In this document: positions 15,763 to 30,826 of the stretch, piece after piece | Position numbering within the stretch: position 1 is the stretch's first letter | Layout of the letters: every line of letters begins with the position of its first letter | Made by a program: the position numbers and the translations under genes | Origin: Candidatus Iainarchaeum sp. | Lineage (GTDB): Archaea; Iainarchaeota; Iainarchaeia; Iainarchaeales; DTGL01 | Direction of reading: 5' to 3' | Assembly: GCA_038736825.1 (NCBI GenBank) | Contig: JAVYME010000001.1 | Location: 76,933 to 140,932 of the forward strand | Length of the DNA stretch: 64,000 bases | Notes under the pieces: model-generated | What the model was told of the DNA's origin: nothing | Database searches by the model: none | Seen by the model: the letters and a program-made list of their open reading frames with translations, nothing else

Positions 15763-16335
15763 TCAGGTTGCATTCGCATAAACCTTTAACAAATTGCCAC
15801 CATCAGCGCAACCAGAAATGCATGCAACCTCAAAAACCAAAACGCCCTTTTCTTTTTTTTCTGCTTTTGCGCCACTCTTTTCAACAATATCGCCAAAATA
15901 GGGCAATATAACCAAATCCAAAACCGTTGTCTTAGCCGGTGCAACAACAAACTGCACTGCAGAATAATTGGTTCCATCAATTGCTGGAGAGGTAATCGCA
16001 AATGAAAAGGTTTTGCTCGACTTGTTGGATAAAACCAATCCCGTGGATTCCCCAATTGCAATCTCTGTCAAAGAAAAACCTTGTTCTGAAAGTGGCACCT
16101 CAATCATTGACACTTTGTCAAAAGAGAGAACCAATGGTTGTGATGGTTTGTAGTCAGGGTTTTCCTTCAAAAACTGGGAAACAAAATATGGTTTCAAAAC
16201 AATATGAGGATTAGGATCTGGAGGCGGTTCGGCGGAAGGCCGTCCACCCCAATTAAAAACAAAAACAAATAAAGCCAGCAATATTGCAAAAACAACTATT
16301 CCCAAAACAGCCAGCTTCAAATACTTTTTATCCAT
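15763..16335 (-). CDS. hypothetical N-terminally anchored secreted protein
   Basis: N-terminal TM/signal anchor (LAVLGIVVFAILLALFVFVF). No recognizable domain. Convergent with the upstream gene across a 4-nt gap. Confidence 0.45.
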   Translation of the reverse strand: MDKKYLKLAVLGIVVFAILLALFVFVFNWGGRPSAEPPPDPNPHIVLKPYFVSQFLKENPDYKPSQPLVLSFDKVSMIEVPLSEQGFSLTEIAIGESTGLVLSNKSSKTFSFAITSPAIDGTNYSAVQFVVAPAKTTVLDLVILPYFGDIVEKSGAKAEKKEKGVLVFEVACISGCADGGNLLKVYANAT

Positions 16336-16388: not shown

Positions 16389-17639
16389 TTGTGCATTACA
16401 TTGCATTGTTTTGACTCTTGTGAAGGTGAAAAATTGGAAAAATCTGGAAAAAAAGGAACTATCGTGTTTTTACTAATTACACTTTTAGTTGCACAAGTTT
16501 TTGCTGCAGATTGCCTGGATTGGATGGAATCACAATCTGGAAAAGAAGTGGGAGACAATATGAATGATGACGGCGTTTTAGGACCTGGGGAAACACTCGC
16601 AAATAATAAAACAAATAAGCCTGGAGAAATCGGAGTTAATAATGCAAGTACTGTTAAACAAATTGGCGAGAACTACATTAATGGCTCAACTGTGCCTGTA
16701 ACAATATCAAACGATAATGGCACAACAGTACAGACAGACCCAAACCTAAAATATGAACTCACTCCAATTTGGGGTTACAGCAAAGAGTACGGATTTTACG
16801 TTAGCGGTTGGAAAGTCAGTGCTGTGGAAGAGGAAACTGAAAAAGATCTGGATTTTGGTGAGGGTTGGACTCCAGTTAGTCCGACTCCAAAGCCTGTGAC
16901 CCCTACTCCAACTCCAACGATAACTCTAACGCCAACACCTACGCTAACCCCTCTCCCAAACCAAGCACCAACCGCAGACTTTGAAATGTATCCAGAGCCA
17001 GCAAATGGCATGGTTCCTTTGACTGTAAAGTTTAAAGATAAAAGTTTTGACCCAGACGGTTCCATTGTTTCATGGAATTGGGAGTTCGGGGTAGGTACAA
17101 TTGAAGGAACAAATTGTTGCACAAATAAGGAAACAAGCCATGTTTACACTTCAGCTGGCTATTATACTGTCCGGCTAACCGTAACAGACAACTTGGGGGC
17201 AACAGCATCTAATCAAAAATCTATAATTGCAATACAAAAAGCGGCAATAACAATTTTCAAATCAAACAATCCAGAAAACCCAAACCAGCCAGCACAAATT
17301 ATTATTGCATGCGGCAAGCAGGCAGCCCTCCAATTGGAATTCCTTGACAAGGACAGCCAGCCACTTTCCGGAGTTCCAACTCAACTAATGGATGGAGCTC
17401 ACGGCCTGCCATTTTGCAATATCACACCTACAATTCTCAACATAACTGGCTTTCCAAAACCAGGGCTTTATCAAATAAAGGCAAACATTCTTGGAGAGGA
17501 GTGCACTAATTGTCCAAAAACGATCCACATAGTTGTCGGTCAAGAAATGCCAGAACTCCAAACTCCAGAAATCCCAGCAATACTAACCGCAGTAATCGCA
17601 CTTGCAGTGATTGTCATCACAAACAGGAAAAAGAAATAA
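16389..17639 (+). CDS. secreted surface protein with Thr/Pro linker, PKD domain and conserved C-terminal sorting signal (PEIPAIL-TM-NRKKK)
   Basis: Signal peptide (alternative TTG start at 16434). TPTPKPVTPTPTPTITLTPTPTLTP linker. PKD-type domain (PTADFEMYP...GMVPLTVKF...WNWEFG). The C-terminal ~35 aa are almost identical to the 27182..29317 protein. Confidence 0.75.
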   Translation: MCITLHCFDSCEGEKLEKSGKKGTIVFLLITLLVAQVFAADCLDWMESQSGKEVGDNMNDDGVLGPGETLANNKTNKPGEIGVNNASTVKQIGENYINGSTVPVTISNDNGTTVQTDPNLKYELTPIWGYSKEYGFYVSGWKVSAVEEETEKDLDFGEGWTPVSPTPKPVTPTPTPTITLTPTPTLTPLPNQAPTADFEMYPEPANGMVPLTVKFKDKSFDPDGSIVSWNWEFGVGTIEGTNCCTNKETSHVYTSAGYYTVRLTVTDNLGATASNQKSIIAIQKAAITIFKSNNPENPNQPAQIIIACGKQAALQLEFLDKDSQPLSGVPTQLMDGAHGLPFCNITPTILNITGFPKPGLYQIKANILGEECTNCPKTIHIVVGQEMPELQTPEIPAILTAVIALAVIVITNRKKK

Positions 17640-17700
17640 AAAAAGCCAATATATTAGTTCAAAGAGAAAAAAAGCAGGGGGACAATTTTTGGTTTGCTCC

Positions 17701-19275
17701 CTATTTTTTTCCTTTTTTTTCTTGTGTTGATTTTTTTAACAATAGTTCTCTTTCTTGTTGTAGTTTGAGGAGTCTTTCCCTGTAAGCGCTTTCTGAAAGC
17801 CGTCTCTTGAAAAAATCCAGTTTTGCTTTTTTTTCAAGTTCTGAAATTTTTTCAAGGCGCCTTTCAATGGAGCGCTTTTCCAGTTGCTTGAGTTTTTTTC
17901 TCCAAAAAAATGCTGAAATTGAAAGAATTAAGGCTGTTATTCCGCCTCCAAAAACAATTATTTTGCCCCAATCTATGGGTTCAATTATTTCTGTTGAAAT
18001 CTTTGCTTTTCCTGAAAAAGGCGGTTTTAAAACAATTTCAATGGTGTGGGTTCCCTGTAAAGCAAATGGCAGGCTTGCAGAGCAAAAGCCTTTTTCAGTG
18101 CAGGAAAGAGTAATTGAGTGCTGTTTTTCGTCAATGTAAAGCAATGCTTCAACCTCATTGCTTGCAACTTGTTGTCCTTCCACTTGTACTTCTATTTTTG
18201 TAGCTCCGCCACGACTTTCAGTTCTGCCTTCCATTGGGAAAACGAACAAAACCTGGTTTTCAGTCGGGCTTGCCCCTTCTGGAGAAAGCATTTCAAGAGA
18301 AAAACTGTTTTTTTCAGTTTTTGTTCCAGAAGCGTTTTTGCCTGAAACAGTTATCTTCAATTCACTGTCTTTCTCGCTAACGGGGCGCGTGAATTCTGCA
18401 CTCCAGGCTCCTCCTGCAAAAGACAATTTTTTTCTTTCCAGTATTTTTTCTTTTGACAAAAGCCAAGCCTCAAAATCCCCGCTGTTGACAACAGTTTCTT
18501 TTTGGTGAAGAGAAAAGGAAATTTTTCCAACAGGCGAGCCAAAAAAATATTTCTGTTCTTCATTGAAGGGATTGCGGACTTGAATGGTTGCTGGCTTGAA
18601 GAAAAGCGGAATGAAAAAAGTTTTTTCCTTTGAGCCTGCAAGCGCTGCCTTCAATTCCAGTTTTTCAAATTCTTCAAAGGAAGCGTCTGGAACAAAAGAG
18701 CCTTCCAAAAAAAGGTTTTTGGAATCCCATTGCAAGGCAATGCTTTTGCCTTTTATTAAGGCACTAAAATGGGAAAAGGCTTCCTTTTCACTTGAACCCA
18801 AAAACCTTTGAATGTAGGAATTGTCTTTGTCCAAGAAAGCAATACGTATCTTTTTTTCAACTCCTGTTTCGATTGCAATATCCTGTCTTGCCTCTGAAGA
18901 GGGCGGCAAAAATGCTTTGAATTCAGTTCTCGTGATTCGCACTGGCACTGTTTTTTCCCCTAAAAGCATGCCGTTGTCCTTAAGCTTTATTTGTGCTTTT
19001 ACTTGAAAGGTTTTCGGGGAAAAATCTATTGCTTCAAGGTAATATGCATGGCTTGCAAAAGGGCTTTCGGTTGAAATTTCAGTGCCATCCCCAAAACTCC
19101 AAACAAAATCCAAAACGCTTTCAGGAAAATTTTCCAGCTTTAAATTGAAATCCACTGCTTGCGCTTCAAATGCCTCGCTAGTGCTCGCTGAAAGCCCGAA
19201 ATCAAGCGAGCTATGGGCAAATGGCAAAAGCAAGAAAAGAAAGGCTGCCAAAAAAAGGCTTTTTGCCATTTTCAC
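17701..19275 (-). CDS. type-I membrane surface protein (PKD-like repeats) with coiled-coil K/E/R-rich cytoplasmic tail
   Basis: N-terminal signal peptide, WSFGDGTE PKD-like motif and a C-terminal TM (ITALILSISAFFW). The tail LEKKAKLDFFKRRLSESAYRERLLKL is homologous to the tail of the upstream 1059-aa protein. Its stop overlaps the next gene's start by 4 nt. Confidence 0.7.
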   Translation of the reverse strand: MKMAKSLFLAAFLFLLLPFAHSSLDFGLSASTSEAFEAQAVDFNLKLENFPESVLDFVWSFGDGTEISTESPFASHAYYLEAIDFSPKTFQVKAQIKLKDNGMLLGEKTVPVRITRTEFKAFLPPSSEARQDIAIETGVEKKIRIAFLDKDNSYIQRFLGSSEKEAFSHFSALIKGKSIALQWDSKNLFLEGSFVPDASFEEFEKLELKAALAGSKEKTFFIPLFFKPATIQVRNPFNEEQKYFFGSPVGKISFSLHQKETVVNSGDFEAWLLSKEKILERKKLSFAGGAWSAEFTRPVSEKDSELKITVSGKNASGTKTEKNSFSLEMLSPEGASPTENQVLFVFPMEGRTESRGGATKIEVQVEGQQVASNEVEALLYIDEKQHSITLSCTEKGFCSASLPFALQGTHTIEIVLKPPFSGKAKISTEIIEPIDWGKIIVFGGGITALILSISAFFWRKKLKQLEKRSIERRLEKISELEKKAKLDFFKRRLSESAYRERLLKLQQERELLLKKSTQEKKGKK

Positions 19276-22200
19276 CTCTCCTTGTAAAGCCTTGCCAAAA
19301 CCATTTCAATTACTTTTTCACTATAGCCCTCGTTTCTAAGCCCTCTTGCCACCTCTTCTCTTGAAAACTCTCCGATTCTTCCGCAAAGTCTTGTTGTGAG
19401 CACTATGGCTTGAACTTTTTCAGGCGCTTTCTTGAAATCCTTTGAGGGAAAAACTGTTTTCCAAAAGCCTGTTTTAATCCAAAAACCGCTTTTTAATAGA
19501 GAATCAATGCATTTCAGTCCTTTGCTTAAAAGCCTTATTTGTTCGCCGAGCTCGCTTTCAGAAATATGCCTTTTGAAAAACTCAAACTTGTATTTTTTCT
19601 CCAGTCCAGTCAAGCGCTCTTTTTCCCTAAGCAAGAAAGCCCTTTCAGAAAAAACATTTCTTAAAAGCAATGCAAGGAAAACCAGGATTACAATGCAAGC
19701 AAAACCGAAAGCCAGCAAAGCAAGGCTTAAGCCTTGCTCAATGGTTGCAATAACTGTTCCTTCTCCAGAAAAATCTTCTTTTAAAACAAGCTTGAGTGAA
19801 TGCGTTCCAGCCAGCAAGGGCGAACTCAAAACCCCCTTGTGCAATTTTTCTTTTTCGTCAAACTTGAGTGAAACAGGCTGCAGGTTGCCGTCAACCAGCA
19901 AATCGCTGTTCAATGCAATGTTGGCAAACAAGTGGTTGTTGGGCTGGAAAAACCTAACACTTATCTCGCTTATTTTGCCATTCCAGGGCTTGTTCAAGCC
20001 AGCGCTGGGTTGAACAAAAACCATTTGCAGGTTGTTTGAAAGTGAAATTGTTAAAAACTCTAAATCCATCAATTCTTTGCCGTCAAGAGTGGCGTGTGCT
20101 TCAAGCCGGCAGCTCACGCTTTTTTTGCCAGAATCCTGCAATGGCAAAAGGATTTTCGCAGAATATTGCTGGCTTTCTTTATCAAAATCCATTTCCTCCA
20201 AAAAATCCAGTTCAGGGCATTCCACAATGATTTTTTTGTTTTTAACCTTGTAATTGTCTGAAAGAATTTTTGCCTTCAAGTTAACTGTTTGCCCGAAAGC
20301 ATACTCGCGCTCACTGTTCACTGGCTCCAATATTGAAATAACCAGTGCCGAGTTTTTTGCAAGCGGAACCGCTTGCACTTCATCAACCTTGTTGCCTGCA
20401 GCATCCCTGCCCTTCAATTTCAACTTTAAACCATGCAAAAAATCGGTTTCATTCACAGTATGGTCAAAATAAAGCGTGTAATCAAACTCGTTTTTTTCAA
20501 TTCTCACTTCTTCCTCTTTTTTGCCTGAAACAAGCACTGCCCTTAACTCGCTTGGAAAAACCACGATTATGCCGTTCAACAAAAACATTACTTTGGCTTT
20601 TTCAAGGGAATCAAGCAAAAAATATTTTTTGCCCTTGAAGACATTGGTTGCCTTGAAAAAAGAAGGCTCAAAAAACACTGGCGCTTTTGCATGGAACTCG
20701 CGCTTTTCCCCCTTAACCTCACTCAAAGCATGAATTTCCAAGAATTCAGTTTCAGAAAGCGAACTCCAAGGCTTAAAAATTCCCTCAAAAATTGTTCCAG
20801 AACAATGCATTTCAACCAGCGAGCCAGCAAGCAAAACCCTGAGCGAAATTCCTTGACAAGCAATCCTTTCATCGGCTTCATCCAAAAACTCCAAGCGCAC
20901 ATTCAAATCCCTTTGCTTTGAATTTGTCTGCACATGGGTTGGCTCCAAAACTCTTGCCTTAAACTTGGACTTTAAAACCTTAACCTTAACCTCTGCGCCT
21001 GCAGTCTGCCCTTTGGAATCACTAACGCGAACCTTCACCAAAAACTCTCGCTCTTTCTCCAAACCCAAAAAATAAGCGTGAAATGCCTCTCTCTGGCTTG
21101 CATTAGAGTCATCACCGAAATCCCAGAAAAATTCAAGCGACTCTTCATTCAAAGCATTAGTGATTGCAGTGAAATAAAAATATTGTCCTTCAAATTGCTG
21201 CCTGCTTTCAGGGTCAACCAGTACTGTCAAAACCTGCAATGGCTCGTCCTTTAAAGAAGTTTTAAAGGACAAAACAGGGCTTTCCCTTGAAAGGCTTTGC
21301 GTTGAAGAAACTGCCTTGAAAAAATAGTTTGTTTCCGGTTTCAATCCAAGCAAGTGGATTTTGTGGTGAATTGTTTTAGTGCCGTCAAAAACCCTTGAAC
21401 CCAAAGCACTGGTTTCACCGAACTCCACTGCAGAATCGGATTGCACTAAAGTGTTCCAGTAAACCTTTGCATGAGTGGCAAAAGCAAAAACCTGAACATT
21501 TTTTGGATCAATATCCTGCAATCCTGCTTTCAAAATGCAGCGGTTTTCTTGACTGCAATAAAAGCCTTCCTCGCACTTTGCAGTGCAATCAATTTTTTGC
21601 CCGCAATTATTGCTTTTAGAACCACACTCGCTCTCGGAACACGAAAGGGCTTTGCAGCATTTTCCATTAATGCAATTCCAGCCAGCACTGCAAGAGCACT
21701 GAATTGTGCCACCGCAATCATTTGAAAAAGAACCGCATTGTCCTGCAAAATCCCTTGAACACGACTTGCAGGATTGCAAGCATTTCCCGTTCAAGCAACC
21801 CCCCGAACAAAACTCGCTTTCAATCCTCGAGCAATCCGCATTAGAGTAAACCCTTGTAGAACCAGAACAAAACCATCCTTGAACACAAGGTTGAAGCAAA
21901 CCACTAGAAGCAGCACTAGAACCCTGTGGTTTGCACTCAGGACACAAAGAACTGCCATCACCTGATTGTGATAAATTTTGTCCTGGCATTTGATAAACAG
22001 CTGCAGGAGAGCCCTTAGCTTTTGATTGCAAATAATCATCATATGGGTCGCCCCCCTTAGACAAATCCTCATAAGAACCACCGGCAGGTGCCGCTCCATC
22101 ATCTTGTCCTAGCTCATTTACTCCTCCTGTAGCTCCTGTTTGACTCAAGCCATCATCATTTTGGACAAAAGTTGGAGTGGAAGCGCCATCAGCAGCCCCG

Positions 22201-22451
22201 CTAGGCAAACTTGGGCCAGGCGAGTTGTTAGTTGGGGGATTGAGTGCGTCGTCTGAAACAGGGCAATCTGGACAGTAGTATGCGCCTGTGCCTTCGGTTA
22301 CAGCAAAATATGCTGTTTTTTCTTTAGGCAAGGCTAATGAAAAGAAACCGGTTTTTTCGCTTAAAATGGTTTCATAAAACAGCCAGGTTATGGCTAGCAC
22401 TAAAACTATTGCCAACAAAAAGGCAGGCTTTTTTGAAAAAACTGAAGGCAT
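19272..22451 (-). CDS. giant type-I membrane surface protein: acidic G/D/S/P-rich region, Cys-rich EGF/laminin-like module, FN3/PKD-like repeats, TM and ~150-aa cytoplasmic tail
   Basis: 1059 aa with signal anchor and a run of CxxxxC repeats (CSGGCLNGKCLQSCKSC...CGQKIDCTAKCEEGFYC). WDFGDDSNA PKD-like and PETNYFFKAVS FN3-like motifs. C-terminal TM followed by LEKKYKFEFFKRHISESELGEQIRLL. Confidence 0.75.
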   Translation of the reverse strand: MPSVFSKKPAFLLAIVLVLAITWLFYETILSEKTGFFSLALPKEKTAYFAVTEGTGAYYCPDCPVSDDALNPPTNNSPGPSLPSGAADGASTPTFVQNDDGLSQTGATGGVNELGQDDGAAPAGGSYEDLSKGGDPYDDYLQSKAKGSPAAVYQMPGQNLSQSGDGSSLCPECKPQGSSAASSGLLQPCVQGWFCSGSTRVYSNADCSRIESEFCSGGCLNGKCLQSCKSCSRDFAGQCGSFSNDCGGTIQCSCSAGWNCINGKCCKALSCSESECGSKSNNCGQKIDCTAKCEEGFYCSQENRCILKAGLQDIDPKNVQVFAFATHAKVYWNTLVQSDSAVEFGETSALGSRVFDGTKTIHHKIHLLGLKPETNYFFKAVSSTQSLSRESPVLSFKTSLKDEPLQVLTVLVDPESRQQFEGQYFYFTAITNALNEESLEFFWDFGDDSNASQREAFHAYFLGLEKEREFLVKVRVSDSKGQTAGAEVKVKVLKSKFKARVLEPTHVQTNSKQRDLNVRLEFLDEADERIACQGISLRVLLAGSLVEMHCSGTIFEGIFKPWSSLSETEFLEIHALSEVKGEKREFHAKAPVFFEPSFFKATNVFKGKKYFLLDSLEKAKVMFLLNGIIVVFPSELRAVLVSGKKEEEVRIEKNEFDYTLYFDHTVNETDFLHGLKLKLKGRDAAGNKVDEVQAVPLAKNSALVISILEPVNSEREYAFGQTVNLKAKILSDNYKVKNKKIIVECPELDFLEEMDFDKESQQYSAKILLPLQDSGKKSVSCRLEAHATLDGKELMDLEFLTISLSNNLQMVFVQPSAGLNKPWNGKISEISVRFFQPNNHLFANIALNSDLLVDGNLQPVSLKFDEKEKLHKGVLSSPLLAGTHSLKLVLKEDFSGEGTVIATIEQGLSLALLAFGFACIVILVFLALLLRNVFSERAFLLREKERLTGLEKKYKFEFFKRHISESELGEQIRLLSKGLKCIDSLLKSGFWIKTGFWKTVFPSKDFKKAPEKVQAIVLTTRLCGRIGEFSREEVARGLRNEGYSEKVIEMVLARLYKER

Positions 22452-22654
22452 ACTATACTTAAGGTTTCTTTTTTATTAATCTTTTCCTTGCTCTTTCAGA
22501 AAGGTTTGAGAAAGCAAAACCATTAAAACACAAAAAAACAGCAAAACAATAAAAAGTTATGGCCAGGCAGTGCAATTAAAAACATTTTTAAAAACATACA
22601 ACATAACTATTTTTAATTAAATAATGAAATTTTTTGGCGTGGAGGGGTTTGAGA

Positions 22655-23926
22655 ATGCTTTTCGGTTTTCCTTTGAAATTCTTTGACCAAAAATTTAAAC
22701 CAGTTGCTTTTTTATCGGTTTTGGCTTTACTGGTTTTTTTTGCCTCGAATTCTTTTGCTCAACAAAGAGTGGAACTGGCAAATCCAGTGTGCTTTTATGA
22801 TGTCAATCAAATGCACGAATACTTTACTGACTTGCAGGGCAATAAAATTCCAAACCTGGACTTTATAAGGCTTTTTAGCGCTATTGAAGCAAAACCCCAA
22901 AACGACCCTTCAATAAAGGACGAAATAAAGCGCGCGCTCAGGGGACAATTTTATACTGGTTATTTGCAGCTCGCTTACACTATTGAAGGCGGAAAAAAGA
23001 ACCCTTTCAAGGGAGGCAATTATGCTAAATGCGATTTAGGTTGCTTTCCACAATTTACTTATTTTGGGAGAACCTATTACAACAAGTGCATTACAAGGAT
23101 TTGCACTGAGGGCAGAATGGTTGGCACTCCTCGTTTTTGTGATCCAAAAATCGGACCCGATATTTACATTCACTACCTGACTTTTTGGTGCGAAGATGTT
23201 CCACAGGCAACAATGATTTGCGGGCCGTCAGCTCATTGCGAGCAAAGAGCGGATGGCACTTTTTTGTGTGAATACAATAGCGCAACTTCTTCAAACCAAA
23301 GCAATGGCGTGGAATATGTTTTGGTTGCTCCAGCGGATTCAAGCTCTCAAATAATGGTTGCAGCATACCAGAACGGAAAGCTCATTGCAAGCAAGCCGAT
23401 TGGCACAACAGGCCCTGTTCATGCAAGCCAGGCTTATGCTTTTGCGCAAAGCACTGGATTGGCTTCGGTTGTGGCTTCAGCACTCCAGCAAAAAACAACA
23501 ACCACTGCTTCCAGTAAGCCTAGCACAACCTATTCTGCATCATACAATGGCAGCACAAACTATTCTTCAACTCCAATAAGAATGCAGGTTGTTGCTAGTG
23601 CCACAAAAGGCCTTTCAGCCTATAGAGCGCCAACTGCAACCTACAAAACATATTCAACCACAAGCACAGCCAGCACTGCAACATACGCTTACAGCACAAG
23701 CCAAACCAAAAGCACTTCTGCAAGCAGTTATTCTTCAAGCACAACTTATTCGCCAACAAAAACCACTTATAGCAATACGGTTTCACCTTATTCAACTTCA
23801 AATTACAGGATTCAAGCAACAACTTATAATCCGACAAGGACAGCATACTCTACAAACGCTTACACAAGCACTTACAGCACCACAACACAGGCTACGGCGA
23901 GTGTTTCAAAATACAGGCAAACCTGA
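22655..23926 (+). CDS. secreted protein with Cys-containing N-terminal domain and ~170-aa Ser/Thr/Tyr-rich low-complexity C-terminal region
   Basis: Signal peptide MLFGFPLKFFDQKFKPVAFLSVLALLVFFASNSFAQQ (the track begins at a TTG at 22634). The C-terminus is dominated by S, T, Y and A (TYSTTSTASTATYAYSTSQTKSTSASSYSSSTTYSPTKTTYS...). Confidence 0.6.
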   Translation: MLFGFPLKFFDQKFKPVAFLSVLALLVFFASNSFAQQRVELANPVCFYDVNQMHEYFTDLQGNKIPNLDFIRLFSAIEAKPQNDPSIKDEIKRALRGQFYTGYLQLAYTIEGGKKNPFKGGNYAKCDLGCFPQFTYFGRTYYNKCITRICTEGRMVGTPRFCDPKIGPDIYIHYLTFWCEDVPQATMICGPSAHCEQRADGTFLCEYNSATSSNQSNGVEYVLVAPADSSSQIMVAAYQNGKLIASKPIGTTGPVHASQAYAFAQSTGLASVVASALQQKTTTTASSKPSTTYSASYNGSTNYSSTPIRMQVVASATKGLSAYRAPTATYKTYSTTSTASTATYAYSTSQTKSTSASSYSSSTTYSPTKTTYSNTVSPYSTSNYRIQATTYNPTRTAYSTNAYTSTYSTTTQATASVSKYRQT

Positions 23927-23953
23927 AACCGCATGTATTTTTTCTTTTGACAA

Positions 23954-25285
23954 TCAGGTCGTTTCCAGAAGCCATTTCCATAAAGGCATAAACCTTATTT
24001 TTTTACCCTTGTATTCTTCAATTCCTTCAAAATCAGCGTTAACCACCAGCAAATTGTTACACTTGAGCTCTGTGCTTGCTTTGAGCAGTCCTTCAAGTTC
24101 TCGTTTTTTGGTTTCAAAATCACTCAAATCATAGCAAACCTGAATTAACTGGAGCACCTTTGGACCTTCCTTTAAAACAAAATCAACCTCTTTGCCTGAA
24201 GAGTCCTTCCAGTAATAGATTTCTGCAGGGGCTTCCAAATAAGACTTTCTCCTAAGCAATTCAATTGCAACCGCATTTTCAACAAGCTTGCCATAATTTT
24301 GGCTTAATTTGAAAGAAACCGCGTTTACAAGGCCAGTGTCAATACAATAGATCTTTTTAGGGGCTTTGATTTGCTCTTTCAACTTGGGTGAAAATCTTTC
24401 AAGTTTGAAAAACAAATAGGAGTTTTCCAAATAAGCAATCCAATTGGACACCGTGTGAGTGCTCTTTAAGCCCAAAATGTTTTTCAGCCGGTTGTAAGTT
24501 AATTCAGAAGAGGTATTGGAAATCAAATACCTTGAAAGCTCTTTAAGTTTCGAAACATATTTTATTTTATACCTTTGAATTACGTCCTTTTCAATGATGT
24601 CACTATAAGTTTCTATAAGAAACAGTCTGCCCAGCTTAAAAGCCAGGGGAAACCCGCCTTCACGCAAATATCTTTCCAAAAAATTCTTTAATTTTGCAAC
24701 AGACTTTGTGGAATACTGGTCTTTTTTATCAAACTCAACCCCAGCATAATCCAAAAACTCTCTGAAGCTGAACGGAAAAAGAACAAAATCAATATGCCTG
24801 CCGGTTAAAAAAGTGGAAAGCTCTTTACTCATCAATCGCGCATTGCTGCCAGTGACAATTACCTTCTTCCCAGTGCTGACTCTAGAAACAAAACGCTCCC
24901 ACCCACTAACATTCTGGATTTCGTCAAAAACAAGAAGGCTAACATCGCCTTTTAAAGAATAAACTGCCTCTATAACTGAATTCAAGTCACGAACAGCCAC
25001 GCCGAGTCGCTCATCTTCAAAATTCACATATCCTCTCCGGTCTGATTCAAAACATTGAAAAGCAAAAACAGACTTGCCACATCGCCTGACACCGGTTATT
25101 ATCACTATAACATCCGTGGAAATAAACTTTTTAACTTGGCTAAGGCATTCCCTCTCAATAATTCGCTCACTCTTGAACTTATCAAGCAAAGCCTCTTCTC
25201 TGTCCACAATTGCAGATTTAATATCCCCCAACAAAACCATAAAAAAAAAGTAACGCAAAGATTTTAAAAAACTTTGCGTTGGCAA
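23954..25285 (-). CDS. AAA+ ATPase of the COG1373/DUF4143 family
   Basis: Walker A ITGVRRCGKS and Walker B LLVFDEIQ. Overall archaeal 'ATPase + DUF4143' architecture, 443 aa. Confidence 0.8.
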   Translation of the reverse strand: MPTQSFLKSLRYFFFMVLLGDIKSAIVDREEALLDKFKSERIIERECLSQVKKFISTDVIVIITGVRRCGKSVFAFQCFESDRRGYVNFEDERLGVAVRDLNSVIEAVYSLKGDVSLLVFDEIQNVSGWERFVSRVSTGKKVIVTGSNARLMSKELSTFLTGRHIDFVLFPFSFREFLDYAGVEFDKKDQYSTKSVAKLKNFLERYLREGGFPLAFKLGRLFLIETYSDIIEKDVIQRYKIKYVSKLKELSRYLISNTSSELTYNRLKNILGLKSTHTVSNWIAYLENSYLFFKLERFSPKLKEQIKAPKKIYCIDTGLVNAVSFKLSQNYGKLVENAVAIELLRRKSYLEAPAEIYYWKDSSGKEVDFVLKEGPKVLQLIQVCYDLSDFETKKRELEGLLKASTELKCNNLLVVNADFEGIEEYKGKKIRFMPLWKWLLETT

Positions 25286-25457
25286 CGCTAACCTGTTTTA
25301 GCCTAGCAAATCCAGCATCCAATACCTTATCGTATACCAAAAACGGTTTTCGATTTAGAGAATTGATAAAAAAAGCCTGCAGGTTAAAGCCAAAGCAAAC
25401 CTGAAGCCAGCTATTGCTTTTTTCTCTTTTTCTTTTCTTTTCACTATAGTGAATTGA

Positions 25458-25895
25458 ATGGATTTTTTTTTGGGTTCAGACCATGGCGGGTATCCCTTAA
25501 AGGAAAAAGTCAAAAAATGGCTGGAAAGCGAAGGCCATTCAATAAAAGATTTTGGCTGTTTTTCAGTGGAAAGCTGTGATTATCCCGAGTTTGCTGAAAA
25601 GGTTGCAAGAGCAGTTACAAAAAATAAAGATTCAATTGGATTGCTTTTTTGCGGCACTGGAATTGGCATGAGCATTGCAGCAAACAAAATCAAGGGAATA
25701 CGGGCAGCACTCTTGCATAACGCTTTTGAGGGAAAAATGGCAAAAGAGCACAACAATGCAAACGTGCTCTGCTTTGGAGGCAGAACTGTTTCTTTCAGGA
25801 ATGCAAAAAAGGCAATCACTGCTTTTTTAAAGGCAGAATTTGTGGGCGGCAGGCATTTGCGGAGAATAGAAAAAATTGCAGCACTCGAGAGATGA
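25458..25895 (+). CDS. rpiB: ribose-5-phosphate isomerase B (RpiB/LacA family)
   Basis: LGSDHGGYPLKE...FCGTGIGMSIAANKIKGIRAAL is characteristic of RpiB. 145 aa. Confidence 0.9.
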   Translation: MDFFLGSDHGGYPLKEKVKKWLESEGHSIKDFGCFSVESCDYPEFAEKVARAVTKNKDSIGLLFCGTGIGMSIAANKIKGIRAALLHNAFEGKMAKEHNNANVLCFGGRTVSFRNAKKAITAFLKAEFVGGRHLRRIEKIAALER

Positions 25896-26317
25896 AAATG
25901 TTTGAATTGTTTGAGCACAAGGCAGACATTGGAGTGCGCGGTTATGGAAAAACGCTTGAAGAAGCCTTTCAAGAGTGCGCGAAGGCAATGTTCAGCGTAA
26001 TGTCAAACCTGAAAAAAGTCAAAGCCAGAGAAAGCATTGAATTGCGAGTTAGAGCGAGAAATGAAGAAGAATTGCTTGTTGCCTGGTTAAACGAATTATT
26101 GTTTGAAAAAGGCACAAAAGAAATGCTGTTCTCTGAATTCAAAGTGAAAATTTCAAAGGAAAAAGAAGGACTGGTTTTGAAAGGCACAGTGAAAGGCGAA
26201 AAAATGAACCACAAAAAACATGAAATGAAAACAGAAGTCAAAGGAGCAACCTATTCTGGCTTGAAAGTGATTAAAGAAAAAGAAAAGTATTTAGCGCAAT
26301 GCATTGTCGATGTATAA
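25892..26317 (+). CDS. archease (RtcB ligase activator)
   Basis: MFELFEHKADIGVRGYGKTLEEAFQECAKAMFSVM matches the archease N-terminal signature. 141 aa. Overlaps the rpiB stop. Confidence 0.85.
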   Translation: MKMFELFEHKADIGVRGYGKTLEEAFQECAKAMFSVMSNLKKVKARESIELRVRARNEEELLVAWLNELLFEKGTKEMLFSEFKVKISKEKEGLVLKGTVKGEKMNHKKHEMKTEVKGATYSGLKVIKEKEKYLAQCIVDV

Positions 26318-26379
26318 AGCAATTGCAGCAAAGCCGCGTGGTTTGACAATAATGTTTAAATAGTGGAAATGCGTAATAT

Positions 26380-27185
26380 TTGAGAATGAAAAGATTTGGT
26401 TTTTTGCCTTCAGTTTTTTACTGTCTCGCCATGTTCGGCTTGATTTTCACGCTAGTGGCAGCCCAAGAAGAAGTAAGGCAGCTTTCCATTAAAATTGAAG
26501 GCTTGCGCTATGTAAGGCATGAAACAGTAACCATTACGGCGCTTTTTGATGGGCAACCCGTTGCTGGCGTTGATGTAAATGTTTTTTTCAAAGATTTGAA
26601 CCTGAAAAAACAGACCAAAACAAAATAATATTGCAAAGAATAGAAGATTATAAGACAGACAGTCAAGGCAAGTTTTCCTTTAAATTGCATGAAGCCGGCA
26701 CTTACTTTTTATTTTTTGCCAAAAAAGAAGGAACCATTTTTTACGCAGCAAGCGAAAAAATAGATTTTTTGATAAATCCAAGACCATATTTCAGTGCAAG
26801 CAATGGCGTTTACAATCTTTGCTTTAGGGAACCAATTGGCTCAATAACAATCATTGAAGGCGAGAAAAGAACAACCCAAAGCCTTGATGAAAACAATTGC
26901 ACTCAATACTCTCCAAAAACAGAGTCCTTCACAGTTGAAACCCCTTACAGCAAAGAATTCAAAAAGATTTCAATACCAGTAAAAGTTGAAACAGAAAAAC
27001 CAACCCCTGTCCCAACACAACCCACTCCAATACAAACACAATTTGAAGAAAAAACAAAGCCGATTTCACAACCAAAAACACAAACCCAGCCAGACTTACT
27101 GTTACCTATCAGCATATTGTTAGTTGCAAGCATATGCTTGGTTGCTGCAGGAGTTTACCTCAGAAAACGGAGGATGAATTCATGA
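26380..27185 (+). pseudogene. frameshift-interrupted gene for a small surface protein (signal peptide + carboxypeptidase-regulatory/transthyretin-like beta-sandwich + Thr/Pro linker + C-terminal TM anchor)
   Basis: Two consecutive ORFs (26380..26628 in frame 1, 26631..27185 in frame 0) together encode one domain (VTITALFDGQPVAGVDVNVFF | YKTDSQGKFSFKLHEAGTYF). Frame 0 is open from 26574. A T7 run (26582-26588) and an A6 run (26605-26610) lie in the overlap. Confidence 0.5.
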
Positions 27186-29317
27186 AAAAAATACTCTTTG
27201 TTTTGGCTCTTTTTTTAATGCTTTCCTGTGCCAATGCAGCAAAAAAAATCCAGCTCACTGTAGAAGACGACGGCATTGACCCAGTAACCCCAGAAGAAGA
27301 TGCTGACACAAAAGACAAAGCATACCTTGTAGTAGGACCAGGGCCTTACACTTTGACAGTCAAAATCCAAAACTTGCAGGAAATAGAAGAGTTTGGCGGT
27401 CCAGTTGATGTAATGGCTTTATTTGATGCCAGTTATAGCTTTAATGATGAAATCGAGGTTGTCAAAAATGACATAGAAAAACTTGGAGCAGAACTGGATC
27501 AAAACTGCCAAAAAATAGGCATTCCGGGGTGCTTCAATTTAGGGCTTTACGTTTTTGAAGGAGGCACTTGCGCTAGAAATTGTTCCAACCAATATGTTTG
27601 CACTCAAATAAATTGCAGAATAGTCACAGTTAAAGATTGGTGCACTGAGTGTACTGTAATAACAATTCCAGGCAAGTGCCAAGTTTGCGATTATGAAACT
27701 GAATGCCGTGAGGTTTGTGAATTGCGTGATAACGTGAAAGTATGCTGGCCAGAGTGCCACGAAGTGCCAAAAAACTGTCGAATGGAGCCATGTGACACAT
27801 ACAAGTGGGATTGCAAACTAGTGCCTTGCTTTGTAGAAGAAGAGGTATGCGATGAACATTGTGAATGGCAAGAAGTTTGTGGTTGGACTGTGTGCAAAAG
27901 GCCTGATGCTGCTTTTTGGAATTCCACTGATTTCCAGCAACCAGTGACTCCGCCATTGCCTTTGGATTATGCAAACGATGTTGGCTTGCTTCCCATAACA
28001 AACAATATGACGCTTGTCAAAAACAACTTGGAAAAAATTAGTGCTCCAAACTTTTCAACACAACAGCTAGAGCCATGGGGTAGCATTATAACCTATGTTT
28101 TGAATGCACCTGAAGTAAAATGGCAGGAAAACCACCGGAGGGCAATAATATTAATCACGGATGAAAAAGATGATTCTGGCACTTACAAGACTGCAGCACA
28201 ACTTGCAAAAGACCAAAACGTGGTTGTGTTCGGCATTATTGGAAAAGGAGTGGGTTCAGATGAAGCGAAAGCCAATGCTGAATATGTTGCAAACCTGACA
28301 GGCGGAAAGGTTTTCACTTATACAAATTCTGAAGAAATAAAAGCCCTATTGCGTGAAATAATGGGCTCACTCATAAAAGAAGACACTTTTGTTTTTTCAA
28401 AAGAATTAGGGCCTAACTGGGATGGAATAACTGCAAATTTTGATCTGCCGCCGGTTCCAAGAAAGGGACCCGGACTTGTTTACCCAATCAAGGGCCTTGC
28501 TCCAGCGGTTTGGCCTACAACTGAGGAATATTTCCATTACAGGGTTTCCTTGAAAAGCAATCCGGCTGTTTTTGATGATGCTTGGGTTAGAGTGACCATT
28601 AATACGCCGCCAACTGCCGATTTTGAAATGATTCCAACTCCGCCAACTGGAATGGTGCCTTTAAGCGTAAAATTCGTCAACAAATCAACAGACAACGAAG
28701 GAAACATTACAAACTACCATTGGGTTTTTGGCGATCCATCTTCAGGAGCAGACAATGAAAGTAATGAAGAAAACCCAACACACGTTTTCCAATATGCTGG
28801 AGAATATTCAGTCACTCTTACAGTAACCGACAGCGGGCAAGCAAGTCACAGTGTTACAAAAAAAGTCATGGCAAAAGAAAGGCCCCTAATTTCTGCGTTC
28901 AAGGCGAATAATCCCAAGACACCAGATGAAGGACTGGACATCACGGTTTACTGCACAAAATTCCAAGCCTTAATCAAAATAGAAATACTGGACAAGGATG
29001 GATTGTTGGTGACAAAGGACAAAGACGGCAACCCCATAACAAACCCAATAAAAATTCCTGGAACAAATGATTGGCCGAGATGCGGAAGCACCATTAGCCC
29101 TGACATCAGGCTTTCAAGCGGAGTCTACCAAATAAGGGCAACAATAATGAAAGATGATGGCAGCGGTCCAGACCCGGATTGCACTAATTGTCCGAAAAGC
29201 ACACACATAACCGTGGGAATGAGCGCACCAGAAATGCAAACCCCAGAAATTCCAGCAATACTAACAACAATAATAGCGCTTGCAGTGATTGTCATTACAA
29301 ACAGGAAAAAGAAATAG
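27182..29317 (+). CDS. secreted multidomain surface protein: vWA-like domain (MIDAS DxSxS) with Cys-rich insertion, PKD domain, conserved C-terminal sorting signal (PEIPAIL-TM-NRKKK)
   Basis: Start chosen at MKKILFVLALFLMLSCANA, preceded by GGAGG. LFDASYSFNDE (DxSxS), AIILITDEKDD, VVVFGIIG. 26 Cys within ~120 aa. PTADFEMIPTPPTGMVPLSVKF PKD. C-terminus is near-identical to the 16389..17639 protein. Confidence 0.75.
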   Translation: MKKILFVLALFLMLSCANAAKKIQLTVEDDGIDPVTPEEDADTKDKAYLVVGPGPYTLTVKIQNLQEIEEFGGPVDVMALFDASYSFNDEIEVVKNDIEKLGAELDQNCQKIGIPGCFNLGLYVFEGGTCARNCSNQYVCTQINCRIVTVKDWCTECTVITIPGKCQVCDYETECREVCELRDNVKVCWPECHEVPKNCRMEPCDTYKWDCKLVPCFVEEEVCDEHCEWQEVCGWTVCKRPDAAFWNSTDFQQPVTPPLPLDYANDVGLLPITNNMTLVKNNLEKISAPNFSTQQLEPWGSIITYVLNAPEVKWQENHRRAIILITDEKDDSGTYKTAAQLAKDQNVVVFGIIGKGVGSDEAKANAEYVANLTGGKVFTYTNSEEIKALLREIMGSLIKEDTFVFSKELGPNWDGITANFDLPPVPRKGPGLVYPIKGLAPAVWPTTEEYFHYRVSLKSNPAVFDDAWVRVTINTPPTADFEMIPTPPTGMVPLSVKFVNKSTDNEGNITNYHWVFGDPSSGADNESNEENPTHVFQYAGEYSVTLTVTDSGQASHSVTKKVMAKERPLISAFKANNPKTPDEGLDITVYCTKFQALIKIEILDKDGLLVTKDKDGNPITNPIKIPGTNDWPRCGSTISPDIRLSSGVYQIRATIMKDDGSGPDPDCTNCPKSTHITVGMSAPEMQTPEIPAILTTIIALAVIVITNRKKK

Positions 29318-29383: not shown

Positions 29384-30826
29384 ATGGCATTGTTAAAAAT
29401 AAGGGATTTTGTTTGGGAAATCCCGAAAGAGGGAAAAATGCGCGTTCCAGCAAGGCTTTACGTGGACCAAAAAATGATTCAAGAACTGGAACGCGAAGAG
29501 CAAACCAATTGGAGCACTTTAAGGCAGTTGAAAAACATTGCTTCCCTGCCTGGCATTCAAAGCCCTGCACTGGCTTTGGCTGACTGCCATCCAGGTTATG
29601 GCGCGCCAATTGGCAGTGTTGCCGCCATGGATTTAAAGGAAGGCGTTATTTCTTTTGGATGCATTGGGTTTGATGTGAATTGTGGAGTGCGCACTCTTGC
29701 AACCCTGTTAAAAAAAAGCGAAGTGGAGAAAAGGAAAAAAGAGCTTGCAGAAGAGCTTTTCAAAAACGTGCCAGCAGGGCTTGGCGTTACAGGAAAACTC
29801 AAATTAAGCCAAAGCGAAATTGACGAGGTTTTAGTGAAAGGCGCTGAATTTTCCCTTGCAAAAGGTTATGGTTTCAAAGAGGACTTGGAGTTCATTGAAA
29901 TGAATGGAAAAGCAAGGGACGCAAACCCGGAAAATGTTTCGCTCAAGGCAAAACAAAGACAGTTCAAGGAAGTCGGCACTCTTGGTTCAGGCAATCATTA
30001 CCTGGAAGTGCAATTCGTGGAAAAAATATTCGATGAAGAAATCGCACAAGCCTTTGGATTGTTTGAAGGGCAAATCGTTGCAAGCATTCACTGTGGAAGC
30101 AGGGCATTGGGCCACCAGATTGGCGCAGACTATCTGGTGGAACTGAAAAAAGCCTCAGAAAAATACAAATTGCATTTGGCAGACCCTGAACTGGTGTCAG
30201 CGCCAATTGAAAGCGAAGAGGGAAAAAAATATTTTTCCGCTGTGAGCGCTGGAATGAATTGCGCTTTTGCAAACAGGCAGGTTTTAGCACACCTTGCAAG
30301 GGAATCCTTTGCAAGGGTTTTTGGAGTGAATGAAAGGGAAATACGGACTTTTTACGAGGTTGGCCATAATACTGCAAAAATAGAAGAGCATGAAGTGGAA
30401 GGAAAGCAAAAGGAATTGCTTGTGCAAAGAAAAGGCTCTACAAGGGGTTTTGGCCCTGAAAGGAAAGAAGTGCCAGCACAGTATAGAAAGTTTGGACAGC
30501 CAGTACTGGTTGGCGGGACAATGGGCACTGCCAGCTATGTTTTGGCTGGAACAATAAAAGGAATGAAGGAAACCTTTGGTTCGGCAGTGCATGGTGCTGG
30601 AAGAAAACTTAGCCGGAATGCAGCAATCAAGTCTTTCAAGGGAGAACAAATTGCAACAGAATTGAACAAAAAGGGAATAATAATCAAAACGCATTCATGG
30701 AAAGGCATTTCAGAGGAAGCTCCTCAAGCTTACAAGGACATAGATGAAGTAATAGAAATAATGGCTGTCACAGGAATCAGCAGAAAAGTTGCAAGGCTCA
30801 AGCCAATGATAACAATAAAGGGATGA
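29384..30826 (+). CDS. rtcB: RNA-splicing ligase RtcB
   Basis: GSGNHYLEVQ..., HCGSRALGHQ and HNTAKIEEHE motifs. 480 aa. Confidence 0.93.
   Translation: MALLKIRDFVWEIPKEGKMRVPARLYVDQKMIQELEREEQTNWSTLRQLKNIASLPGIQSPALALADCHPGYGAPIGSVAAMDLKEGVISFGCIGFDVNCGVRTLATLLKKSEVEKRKKELAEELFKNVPAGLGVTGKLKLSQSEIDEVLVKGAEFSLAKGYGFKEDLEFIEMNGKARDANPENVSLKAKQRQFKEVGTLGSGNHYLEVQFVEKIFDEEIAQAFGLFEGQIVASIHCGSRALGHQIGADYLVELKKASEKYKLHLADPELVSAPIESEEGKKYFSAVSAGMNCAFANRQVLAHLARESFARVFGVNEREIRTFYEVGHNTAKIEEHEVEGKQKELLVQRKGSTRGFGPERKEVPAQYRKFGQPVLVGGTMGTASYVLAGTIKGMKETFGSAVHGAGRKLSRNAAIKSFKGEQIATELNKKGIIIKTHSWKGISEEAPQAYKDIDEVIEIMAVTGISRKVARLKPMITIKG

Follow-up and report, generated by a model that had tools for sequence, protein, structure and literature searches.

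The window, the whole 64-kb stretch of DNA analyzed here, belongs to an uncultured DPANN archaeon and encodes two surface proteins, A and B, that share a C-terminal module. Both open reading frames lie where the preliminary description had placed them, and Pfam-type matches agree with its assignment of a PKD domain to each protein and a vWA domain to B. The features of the two genes, together with two genes lying upstream of A, are as follows.

14247..15758, + strand: UbiA-family prenyltransferase (UbiA, 6.5e-19), with an N-terminal extension of ~250 residues; 6 predicted helices
15763..16335, − strand: 190-residue protein with an N-terminal helix anchor, divergently paired with A
16389..17639, + strand: protein A (PKD match, 1.6e-15); signal peptide, Thr/Pro linker, PKD domain, four-cysteine Ig-like domain, tail
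16959..17219, + strand: PKD domain of A (Pfam PF00801/PF18911), residues 191-277 in the 416-residue reading
17226..17540, + strand: four-cysteine Ig-like beta-sandwich domain of A, C-terminal end CTNCPKTIHIVVG
17541..17639, + strand: tail of A; linker QEMPELQ, TPE (17562-17570), hydrophobic stretch IPAILTAVIALAVIVITN (17571-17624), RKKK (17625-17636), stop
27182..29317, + strand: protein B (VWA and PKD matches); signal peptide, vWA with a Cys-rich insert, PKD, four-cysteine Ig-like domain, tail
28601..28861, + strand: PKD domain of B, residues 474-560
28862..29218, + strand: four-cysteine Ig-like domain of B, C-terminal end CTNCPKSTHITVG
29219..29317, + strand: tail of B; linker MSAPEMQ, TPE (29240-29248), hydrophobic stretch IPAILTTIIALAVIVITN (29249-29302), RKKK (29303-29314), stop

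Protein A is identical in sequence to P0002 (MEM0359773.1) and protein B to P0001 (MEM0359782.1); an ortholog of B with unchanged architecture is encoded in L001. The start of A is uncertain. The TTG at 16434, which has GGTG upstream and yields a normal signal peptide, is likely the true one, while the GenBank start at 16524 gives a protein without a signal peptide. No family match was found for the N-terminal extension of the UbiA-family protein, and no Pfam or NCBIfam family for the 190-residue protein. The UbiA-family gene is a conserved neighbor of family members, being found beside them in L023, L024, and L026 as well.

As had been described, A and B end alike: both read CTNCPK(T/S)xHIxVG...PE(L/M)QTPEIPAILT(A/T)(V/I)IALAVIVITNRKKK-stop, and the near-identical DNA strings quoted for their 3′ ends proved correct to the letter and differ from each other at 3 of 42 nt. 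The likeness had been placed at the tail, where it is indeed closest, but the homology is wider and takes in a C-terminal module of ~226 residues (A191-416 and B474-711; 45% identity, E 4e-55). In both proteins, the module consists of the PKD domain, the four-cysteine Ig-like domain ending in CxNCPKT..VG, a short linker, [T/S]-P-E, ~18 hydrophobic residues, and RKK. Lying between PKD and tail, the other conserved domain is ~100 residues long and has four cysteines that do not vary; it is all-beta in the AF2 model of B (pLDDT 85.8), and its structure matches are generic Ig-like folds. The AF2 helix in the B module spans residues 141-159 of 160 and begins just past TPEIP. The DNA 3′ of the two stop codons is unrelated, and homology ends at the stop.

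Distribution and homogenization of the module

An exhaustive profile search for the module returned 17 further clusters beyond A and B, and we compared the resulting 19 family tails. All clusters with a traceable origin came from Iainarchaeota/Diapherotrites archaea. Searches of a 5.8-billion-protein set with the module, or with the tail only (which was underpowered), gave no usable matches. At least three copies per genome were present in three genomes; the members in JAPLVS01 are P0006, P0024, and one 876-residue protein, and three members each were found in JAZDDY01 and on one 277-kb contig. The N-terminal halves of members differ, comprising vWA domains, CGTGTE cysteine repeats, and acidic or Thr/Pro linkers, and none of the 19 members carries the tail without the PKD and four-cysteine module. 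The window itself holds only two PEIPAIL-type tails, A and B, but there is a probable third copy, P0003 (MEM0360500.1), whose accession belongs to the same series as those of A and B and which probably derives from the same MAG.

Between A and B, identity is 80% in the tail and 37% in the adjacent domain. The final 26 codons specify the same residue at 24 positions, with a nucleotide identity of 70/78; 18 of these 24 residues share a codon, against 10.2 expected from window codon usage (simulated P ~9e-4). The likeness of the two tails thus exceeds chance. In JAZDDY01, paralog tails are 90% identical and the CxNC block has 19/19 identical codons, and on the three-copy 277-kb contig the whole module is homogenized (PKD, 84%; four-cysteine domain, 74%). 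The near-identity of A and B is thus due in part to tail-specific homogenization within genomes. Such homogenization proceeds via gene conversion and/or selection to fit one enzyme, and is separate from, and additional to, any sorting mechanism. The duplication or gene conversion that had been offered as an alternative to a sorting signal therefore survives as concerted evolution accounting for part of the A/B identity, but it is compatible with a sorting signal, and both can hold.

Anatomy of the tail and the named CTERM models

The PEIPAIL motif highlighted in the preliminary description is present in A, B, and P0003, but IPAIL is limited to these three among the 19 tails, and what the family has in common is [T/S]-P-E with a stretch of ~18 hydrophobic residues behind it. 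The pattern [T/S/A/G]-P-[E/D] occurs in 17/19 tails, with L-E at that site in the other two. The Pro of P-[E/D] is one of just three columns conserved at ≥90% in the tail region, while the flanking linker varies. When tails were parsed by script at P-E, which was possible for 15/19 (the remaining four were parsed elsewhere or interrupted), the distance to the first charged residue was exactly 18 residues in 11/15, with a range of 17-21. The hydrophobic stretch has recurrent small residues (e.g., AGIAFAV, AVIALAV) and is followed by a basic cluster of RKK, RKH, or KKK. The family alignment has four invariant Cys as well as the N and P of CxNCP, and CxNC lies 43-47 residues from the C terminus in 17/19 members. 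The Pro and the 18-residue spacing persist in family members with tails otherwise only 28-50% identical to that of A. The linker from the folded domain to P-E measures 7-9 residues and lacks a Thr/Ser-rich stalk, and a motif of the rhombosortase/myxosortase type, rich in Gly or containing Cys, is missing from the tail. The tail does show the generic features of a sorting signal: a position at the extreme C terminus (stop after RKKK in A and B), a Pro motif, a helix and basic cluster, and several occurrences per genome.

The view that the tail fits no named class exactly was borne out, since none of the CTERM models attains its cut-off. Those nearest to the A and B tails, both below threshold, are Loki-CTERM (NF033507; cut-off, 19.9 bits), which gave 19.2-19.7 bits for the isolated tail of A and 18.7 for that of B (13.2 and 12.8 bits on the whole proteins), and Heimdall-CTERM (NF045529; cut-off, 24 bits), which gave 15.0-15.4 bits for the A/B tails. 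Each of these two models matched 3/19 tails at E<=10. The PGF-, PEF-, PEP-, PIP-, and GlyGly-CTERM models (NCBIfam/Pfam) returned no listing at E<=10 for the 19 tails, a result to be read with the HMMER filters in mind, which discard most matches above ~E = 0.1. Lone weak matches were obtained with PGAP-CTERM (0.0027) and VPxxxP-CTERM (0.013).

Archaeosortase and CDP-archaeol synthase genes in related lineages

A lineage-specific sorting or lipid-anchoring system with its processing enzyme outside the window had been proposed. We found no sortase in the 64-kb window, but two related lineages encode, immediately behind CDP-archaeol synthase (CarS), an archaeosortase-family protein of 158-159 residues, and the tail family has so far been traced to Iainarchaeota/Diapherotrites alone; the proposal is thus supported in part, with a candidate enzyme seen in relatives. 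The proteins from L002/L020 (MCX6801604.1) and L025 score 46.2 and 45.7 bits on the exosortase/archaeosortase signature TIGR04178 (cut-off, 23), and Pfam Exosortase_EpsH (PF09721) is on record for those of L020 and L025. These two are 53.5% identical, and NxCTG, NLxRVY, and HTxSW are kept in both. All named subfamilies, from ArtA through ArtF to pacearchaeosortase and heimdallarchaeosortase, fell below their cut-offs (best score/cut-off: heimosortase, 36.9/130; ArtD, 32.9/125; paceosortase, 31.1/80; ArtC, 29.8/100; ArtA, 28.6/75); the best subfamily was heimdallarchaeosortase for the L025 enzyme (36.9 bits) and ArtD for the JAPLVS01 enzyme (30 bits). On sequence criteria, the L020 and L025 enzymes belong to the exosortase/archaeosortase family and to no named subfamily, and the search for an archaeosortase gene that had been suggested thus yielded an unclassified one in two related lineages. 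The gene order in L025 is as follows.

10001-12661: family member
12654-13163: CarS
13165-13641: archaeosortase
13641-14210: methyltransferase

These genes overlap or abut, forming a tight operon, and L012 has the same order. JAPLVS01 has a family member 4 kb upstream of the CarS-archaeosortase pair. Sortase and tail family thus occur together in the JAPLVS01 genome as well as on contigs L025 and L012. Both linked loci are flanked alike, by S15-S3Ae-DUF92 on one side and SecDF-NOG1-PolD on the other, which makes the linkage of member, CarS, and archaeosortase a single inherited arrangement rather than two independent events.

A candidate signal for cleavage and lipid anchoring

In relatives, a gene for a tail protein adjoins genes for a sortase-like and a lipid-activating enzyme, and the tail is therefore probably a signal for cutting and lipid re-attachment. 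We regard an archaeosortase-dependent cleavage and lipid-anchoring signal as the likeliest reading, with a probability of roughly 0.6. The N-terminal signal peptide would direct Sec export, and, judging by the sequence and by the helix of the AF2 model, the hydrophobic tail and the basic cluster behind it would arrest the protein as a type I membrane protein. By analogy with ArtA, the 158-159-residue enzyme would recognize P-E at the outer membrane face and remove the helix via a thioacyl intermediate on its cysteine. Gene linkage and the Haloferax ArtA/PssA/PssD precedent suggest that the new C terminus would be joined to an archaeol lipid that bears an amine and is made from CDP-archaeol, supplied by the co-transcribed CarS. 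This reading is supported by the conserved Pro and 18-residue spacing of the tail, by its being the best-conserved segment between paralogs, by several putative substrates per genome with differing N termini, and by an archaeosortase-family enzyme in the lineage in operon linkage with a member and CarS. It is also favored by the artA and P-E precedents described below and by a sub-threshold concord, in that the tail is nearest to Loki-/Heimdall-CTERM and the L025 enzyme to heimdallarchaeosortase. It is weakened by the occurrence of all 19 tails on one PKD and four-cysteine module, by the sub-threshold CTERM scores and the lack of a sortase in the window, by the common inheritance of the two linked loci, and by the short linker; a Thr/Ser-rich stalk is typical of PGF-CTERM proteins.

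The tail might instead be the plain, permanent type I transmembrane anchor of a PKD/Ig-like/TM module, with TPE as a helix N-cap, the 3′ ends of A and B alike through gene conversion of nearby paralogs, and the archaeosortase serving other substrates. T/S-P-E is a common helix N-cap, and a permanent anchor could therefore conserve it too; the AF2 helix beginning directly past TPEIP fits this account, as do homology over all 226 residues, a tail never met without the module, CTERM models below cut-off, synonymous sites that are alike too (18/24 versus 10.2 in A/B; 19/19 in the JAZDDY01 CxNC block), and homogenization of the entire module on the 277-kb contig. However, gene conversion covers identity within a genome and not the Pro and 18-residue spacing kept across tails 28-50% identical to that of A. 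Anchors of this kind usually keep hydrophobicity rather than sequence, whereas in this family no segment is better conserved between paralogs than the tail. Moreover, other proteins with a strictly C-terminal motif, helix, and basic cluster were limited, in the window and nine related loci, to CarboxypepD_reg-like proteins, and co-transcription of a member with CarS and archaeosortase would go unexplained. We consider a plain anchor rather unlikely.

A partner other than an archaeosortase, engaged either by helix pairing with the ~190-residue N-anchored protein or through cleavage by a CPBP/Rce1-like protease or a rhomboid, seems very improbable. Counting the window, there are four cases of a ~190-residue membrane protein encoded divergently to a family member, with homologs of the window protein in this position at two sites in L023 and one in L026, and the small-residue pattern could aid helix packing, but the pairing may be mere inherited synteny, and any tie of this protein to the tail system is conjectural. 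An Rce1-like gene lies ~5 kb from a family member in L026 but is absent from the other loci examined, a rhombosortase- or myxosortase-type motif is lacking, and the CarS-archaeosortase linkage would again be unaccounted for.

Among known systems, P-E reportedly forms the core of both the PEP-CTERM and the PEF-CTERM motif, and the tails share with PEF-CTERM/archaeosortase C and PEP-CTERM/exosortase a Pro-Glu core immediately before the helix; however, they are unmatched by these models at E<=10, and the ArtC model gives the enzymes 22.4-29.8 bits against a cut-off of 100. VPEID-CTERM/exosortase E is said to be a dedicated single-target system of bacteria with the substrate gene beside the sortase gene. 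Substrate and sortase genes also adjoin in L025 and L012, but at least two additional putative substrates are encoded at other sites in each genome, the host is archaeal, and the motif differs. The Asgard Loki-CTERM and Heimdall-CTERM are the nearest signal models (19.7/18.7 and 15.4/15.1 bits for A/B) and heimdallarchaeosortase (NF045528) the best subfamily for the L025 enzyme (36.9 bits), yet these scores lie below the cut-offs of 19.9, 24, and 130, only 3/19 tails match at E<=10, and the host is DPANN rather than Asgard. We found no paper on these three, which are known as NCBIfam models. Pacearchaeosortase (NF033505) is likewise a small archaeosortase of a DPANN lineage, but at 25.1 and 31.1 bits (cut-off, 80) the present enzymes are non-members.

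In PGF-CTERM/ArtA of Haloferax volcanii and methanogens, as here, Sec-exported surface proteins end in a motif, a helix, and a basic cluster, together with an exosortase-superfamily cysteine enzyme (PMC7157517, PMC6098224). Each of the two enzyme genes also has a link to the metabolism of archaeol-lipid head groups: in Methanosarcina, artA adjoins pssA/pssD, and PssA uses CDP-archaeol (PMC7157517). Unlike in those systems, the motif here is [T/S]-P-E and not P-G-F and always sits on one fixed Ig-like module, the enzymes have 158-159 residues and reach 22.7-28.6 bits with the model for ArtA, whose cut-off is 75, and linkage is to the lipid gene CarS, which acts one step before PssA. ArtC, for its part, is described as PEF-CTERM-specific (PMC9723798).

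A more specific proposal, which we hold to be doubtful, is a DPANN-specific, self-contained lipid-anchoring cassette of co-transcribed substrate, CDP-archaeol synthase, minimal archaeosortase, and methyltransferase. The sortase might draw on a CDP-archaeol-derived lipid produced locally, or on some donor different from archaetidylethanolamine, in anchoring adhesin-like vWA/PKD/Cys-repeat proteins. If so, the archaeosortase-lipid link, for which Haloferax offers genetic evidence only, could be read directly from an operon, and the anchoring chemistry would be identified for surface proteins with which an archaeon of small genome may contact other cells.

As a side observation, CarboxypepD_reg-like proteins in the scanned Iainarchaeal DNA also carry a C-terminal tail of motif, helix, and basic cluster.

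Two surface proteins with a common C-terminal end

The preliminary description drew attention to two surface proteins, here A and B, whose reading frames and Pfam domains are as it had reported:

16389..17639, + strand: A, 416 residues from the first TTG, with a PKD domain
27182..29317, + strand: B, 711 residues, with a VWA and a PKD domain

Both C termini likewise read ...CTNCPK(T/S)xHIxVG(7)TPEIPAILT(A/T)(V/I)IALAVIVITNRKKK-stop, the DNA strings quoted for them are exact, and a six-frame scan of the window found only these two copies of the tail. The shared tail is present and near-identical, but the similarity is not confined to it: BLASTP aligned A191-416 with B474-711 at 45% identity (E 4e-55). 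Along this region, the resemblance is very uneven. The last 26 residues are identical at 24 positions (70 of 78 nucleotides), and identity falls to about 37-39% in the domain preceding the tail, where third codon positions agree at close to the random level. The same codon is used for 18 of the 24 identical tail residues, compared with 10.2 expected from the codon usage of the window (P about 9e-4), and the DNA similarity stops at the stop codon.

In GenBank, A is MEM0359773.1 and B is MEM0359782.1, both on a 157-kb contig. The GenBank model of A starts at the ATG at 16524 (371 residues) and therefore misses the signal peptide. An alternative start, the TTG at 16434 with GGTG 6-9 nt upstream, yields M-EKSGKKGTIVFLLITLLVAQVFA, a normal signal peptide.

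The tail family

A profile of the region after the PKD domain, searched against 1.84 billion representative proteins, recovered A and B themselves (clusters P0002 and P0001) plus 17 further clusters, every one with the same C-terminal module:

PKD domain
~100-residue domain in which four cysteines and a CxNCP motif are invariant, with [K/Q]T and then ..VG after the motif in most members
acidic, variable linker of 7-9 residues
[T/S]-P-E, then a hydrophobic stretch, then RKK

Based on the family alignment, AlphaFold2 predicted a confident beta-sandwich followed by a helix starting just past TPEIP (pLDDT 85.8), and Foldseek returned generic Ig-like folds only. Conserved in the tail are the proline (column at least 90% conserved) and the acidic nature of the next residue, and the first charged residue lies 18 residues from P-E in most members (range 17-21). 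The PEIPAIL motif singled out in the preliminary description is found in A and B but is not family-wide, IPAIL being confined to these two and P0003 (MEM0360500.1, tail QTPEIPAILTAIIALAVVLITGRKK), which is probably from the same MAG. The N-terminal halves vary widely: B and its orthologs have a vWA domain with a cysteine-rich insert, P0008 and P0013 have long cysteine repeats of the CGTGTE type, and acidic or Thr/Pro linkers also occur.

Three family members each were found in the related MAGs JAPLVS01 and JAZDDY01 and on one 277-kb JGI contig; GenBank labels the proteins 'PKD domain-containing protein [Candidatus Diapherotrites archaeon]'. The A/B island is syntenic among these related genomes, in the order EF-1alpha/S10, UbiA-like, A-type member, two large minus-strand surface proteins, RpiB, archease, B-type member, RtcB, Agl23, and L3. 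When a degenerate hand-made DNA pattern, CxNCP[KQ]T(4)VG, was scanned across 185,579 species genomes (GTDB) and JGI metagenomes, the GTDB genomes yielded five real genes, all from two 'Candidatus Iainarchaeum archaeon' MAGs, and the metagenomes one, on a 1-kb contig; the ten remaining matches were attributed to chance. A protein search with the 55 tail residues of A alone gave zero candidates, and a search of genome and metagenome collections with the A/B tail for related loci returned nothing. A profile of 19 tails produced 3048 candidates among 5.8 billion proteins, none at E<=10, a null result that is uninformative on the portability of the tail because a 30-residue profile is too short to reach significance in a set of that size. 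The module profile had no matches in the same set, though the family occurs in the representative library; the set evidently lacks or masks these proteins.

That the tail fits no named class of sorting signal was borne out, every named CTERM model scoring below its cut-off. On isolated tails, Loki-CTERM reached 19.2-19.7 bits for A and 18.7 bits for B (cut-off 19.9) and Heimdall-CTERM about 15 bits (cut-off 24), whereas the PGF-, PEF-, PEP-, PIP-, and GlyGly-CTERM models matched nothing among the family tails. Only three of the 19 family tails matched Loki-CTERM or Heimdall-CTERM at E<=10. We rejected membership in Loki-CTERM since the near-threshold scores are restricted to the IPAIL subgroup.

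Region-by-region identities showed that tails within a genome are more alike than positional counterparts between genomes. The tails of A and B are 80% identical, those of two adjacent JAZDDY01 paralogs 90%, and those of two paralogs on the 277-kb contig 65%, compared with 40-68% between the window tails and those of other genomes. The JAZDDY01 paralogs share all 19 codons from CxNC onward, and on the 277-kb contig the entire module is homogenised (PKD 84%, four-cysteine domain 74%). Homogenisation is not universal, as the P0006 and P0008-type tails of JAPLVS01 are only 38% identical. Gene conversion, the alternative that the preliminary description had itself offered, therefore accounts for part of the identity between A and B.

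A candidate archaeosortase beside CDP-archaeol synthase

The processing enzyme had been placed outside the window. We identified none within it: no sortase was found among its multi-pass membrane proteins, and no homolog of either archaeosortase described below is encoded there. The membrane proteins considered were:

14247..15758: UbiA-family protein, described below
30823..32292: Agl23
45860..47272: read as SecY, on the basis of its position after ribosomal protein genes only
47355..47801: match to the EMC3/TMCO1 family

Agl23 was rejected as a sortase, being a glycosylation-associated membrane protein.

Archaeosortase-family genes are present in related lineages. In JAPLVS01, MCX6801604.1 (159 residues) scores 46.2 bits on the exosortase/archaeosortase signature model (cut-off 23) and lies 4 kb from a family member; its gene directly follows that of CDP-archaeol synthase (CarS), beside SppA and SecDF. 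GenBank labels the enzyme only 'exosortase/archaeosortase family protein'. In a second lineage, JGI contig Ga0366838_1000483 (locus L025) encodes a homolog 53.5% identical to MCX6801604.1:

10001-12661: family member P0013
12654-13163: CarS
13165-13641: archaeosortase
13641-14210: UbiE-like SAM methyltransferase, beginning at the last base of the archaeosortase gene

The order of tail protein, CarS, and archaeosortase recurs on a 1-kb contig. Given their common flanking synteny, the two linked loci count as one retained ancestral arrangement and not as two independent events. Both enzymes fall below the cut-off of every named archaeosortase subfamily (best, heimdallarchaeosortase, 36.9 of 130), and they have the motifs NxCTG, NLxRVY, and HTxSW in common.

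We favor the reading, at a probability of roughly 0.6, that the tail is the signal of an archaeosortase system in the sense of Haft et al., based on its tripartite anatomy with a conserved Pro-Glu, the several substrates per genome, the unclassified archaeosortase in the lineage, and the co-transcription of one substrate with the enzyme. As read from the sequence, the tail proteins would be exported and arrested in the membrane; by analogy, recognition, cleavage, and lipid transfer would then take place at the tail. The linkage to CarS in Iainarchaeota parallels the artA-pssA-pssD linkage in Methanosarcina as well as the fact that Haloferax needs PssA and PssD for ArtA-dependent cleavage and lipidation, the substrate of PssA being CDP-archaeol (PMC7157517, PMC6098224).

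The main rival explanation is a permanent anchor in which T-P-E caps the helix and the identity of the paralogs stems from conversion. It is favored by the fact that no tail was seen apart from the PKD and four-cysteine module, but conversion cannot explain a proline and a spacing kept across the whole divergent family, and we regard this explanation as rather unlikely.

If the archaeosortase reading is correct, the signal and enzyme would form a new member of the archaeosortase/CTERM class, unusual in its minimal enzyme, the fixed Ig-like module before the signal, and the operon with CarS. This undescribed pair would extend the system to Iainarchaeota (DPANN), very small archaea, and would offer biochemistry a compact enzyme of 158-159 residues with short, well-defined substrates. 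From the genomic side, the CarS-archaeosortase operon independently supports a connection between the metabolism of CDP-archaeol and the lipidation of protein C termini, and dedicated models would improve the annotation of both signal and enzyme. To our knowledge, archaeosortase-dependent lipid anchoring has been proven experimentally for ArtA of Haloferax only. Our literature search returned nothing on archaeosortases in Diapherotrites/Iainarchaeota or on these signals, and no paper on Loki-CTERM, Heimdall-CTERM, or pacearchaeosortase. The vWA, PKD, and cysteine-repeat domains are typical of adhesins, which makes the tail proteins candidate parts of the machinery that these archaea use for cell contact.

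Genes neighboring the family

CarS abuts the archaeosortase in both lineages (L025 12654..14210; L020, in JAPLVS01, 8480..10480; also the further locus L012). SecD/SecF are the next genes in both, and JAPLVS01 has the gene for the signal peptide peptidase SppA immediately upstream, in opposite orientation. Between the family member and SppA/CarS/archaeosortase, JAPLVS01 encodes two secreted, cysteine-rich proteins of 509 and 341 residues (L020 5879..8459, equivalent to L002 2984..5564 on the minus strand) with lipobox-like N termini (...FSGC, ...LSGC); counterparts are absent from that position in L025.

Two genes recur next to family members:

window 14247..15758, + strand; L023 11900..13426; L024 9037..10563; L026 7816..9276: UbiA-family prenyltransferase, ~500 residues
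window 15763..16335; L023 9319..9909 and 13423..13962; L026 9283..9867; - strand: ~190-residue protein

The UbiA-like gene is a conserved neighbor, with family genes on either side in L023 and L026, and its product scores weakly on the named UbiA subfamilies, DGGGP synthase among them, and in every case below the cut-off; a lipid link is possible. Its N-terminal extension of ~250 residues has six predicted helices and no family assignment. We rejected this extension as a hidden sortase domain, there being no family match and no tblastn match to either archaeosortase. The ~190-residue protein has an N-terminal membrane anchor (MDKKYxKLAVLG...), a cysteine motif close to the C terminus, and no family in Pfam or NCBIfam; its gene is divergent from the adjoining tail-family gene in four of four cases.

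Directly upstream of B, a gene for a CarboxypepD_reg/SdrD-like surface protein with its own C-terminal anchor (26380..27185, + strand) is broken into ORFs 26380..26628 and 26631..27185 in different frames. The frame changes near 26590, at ...NVFF/QRFEP..., and the orthologs are single genes (L001 2721..3614, 297 residues; L027 8402..9187, 261 residues). Either a frameshift has made this gene a pseudogene or the assembly contains an error here. In three of the four apparent homologs, the helix is immediately preceded by 'PD[L/Y]' and followed by R[K/Q]RR; as the 'PD' is missing in L022, we rejected the idea that it clearly points to a portable signal. Another candidate, the fifth, from L017, seems not to be a homolog.

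Further genes lie between A and B:

17701..19275, - strand, and 19272..22451, - strand: large surface proteins with weak PKD matches and one Pur_ac_phosph_N match
22634..23926, + strand: secreted protein, 430 residues, C-terminal half nearly all Ser/Thr/Tyr/Ala low-complexity
23954..25285, - strand: AAA_14/DUF4143 ATPase

In each of the two large proteins, a membrane helix leads into a basic cytoplasmic tail of 70-150 residues that is probably a coiled coil, and one of these tails has a weak RecX-like HTH match at its end. The anchors of both proteins are unlike the A/B tail, and L017, L023, and L027 have counterparts at this position. Neither a membrane anchor nor a family match was found in the 430-residue protein. 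The ATPase gene lies between the gene for that protein and RpiB; L017/L018/L019 and L027 have no such gene at the corresponding site, suggesting that it was inserted in the window's genome.

The L026 genome alone carries, a few kb upstream of its island of tail-family genes (L026 1..4775), two radical SAM genes and genes for a prepilin peptidase (Peptidase_A24) and an Rce1-like CPBP intramembrane protease. No tRNA genes or Rfam families were found in the 64-kb window. Nearly all of its genes are on the + strand, and its AT skew is strongly positive in the RNA polymerase, elongation factor, and ribosomal protein blocks.
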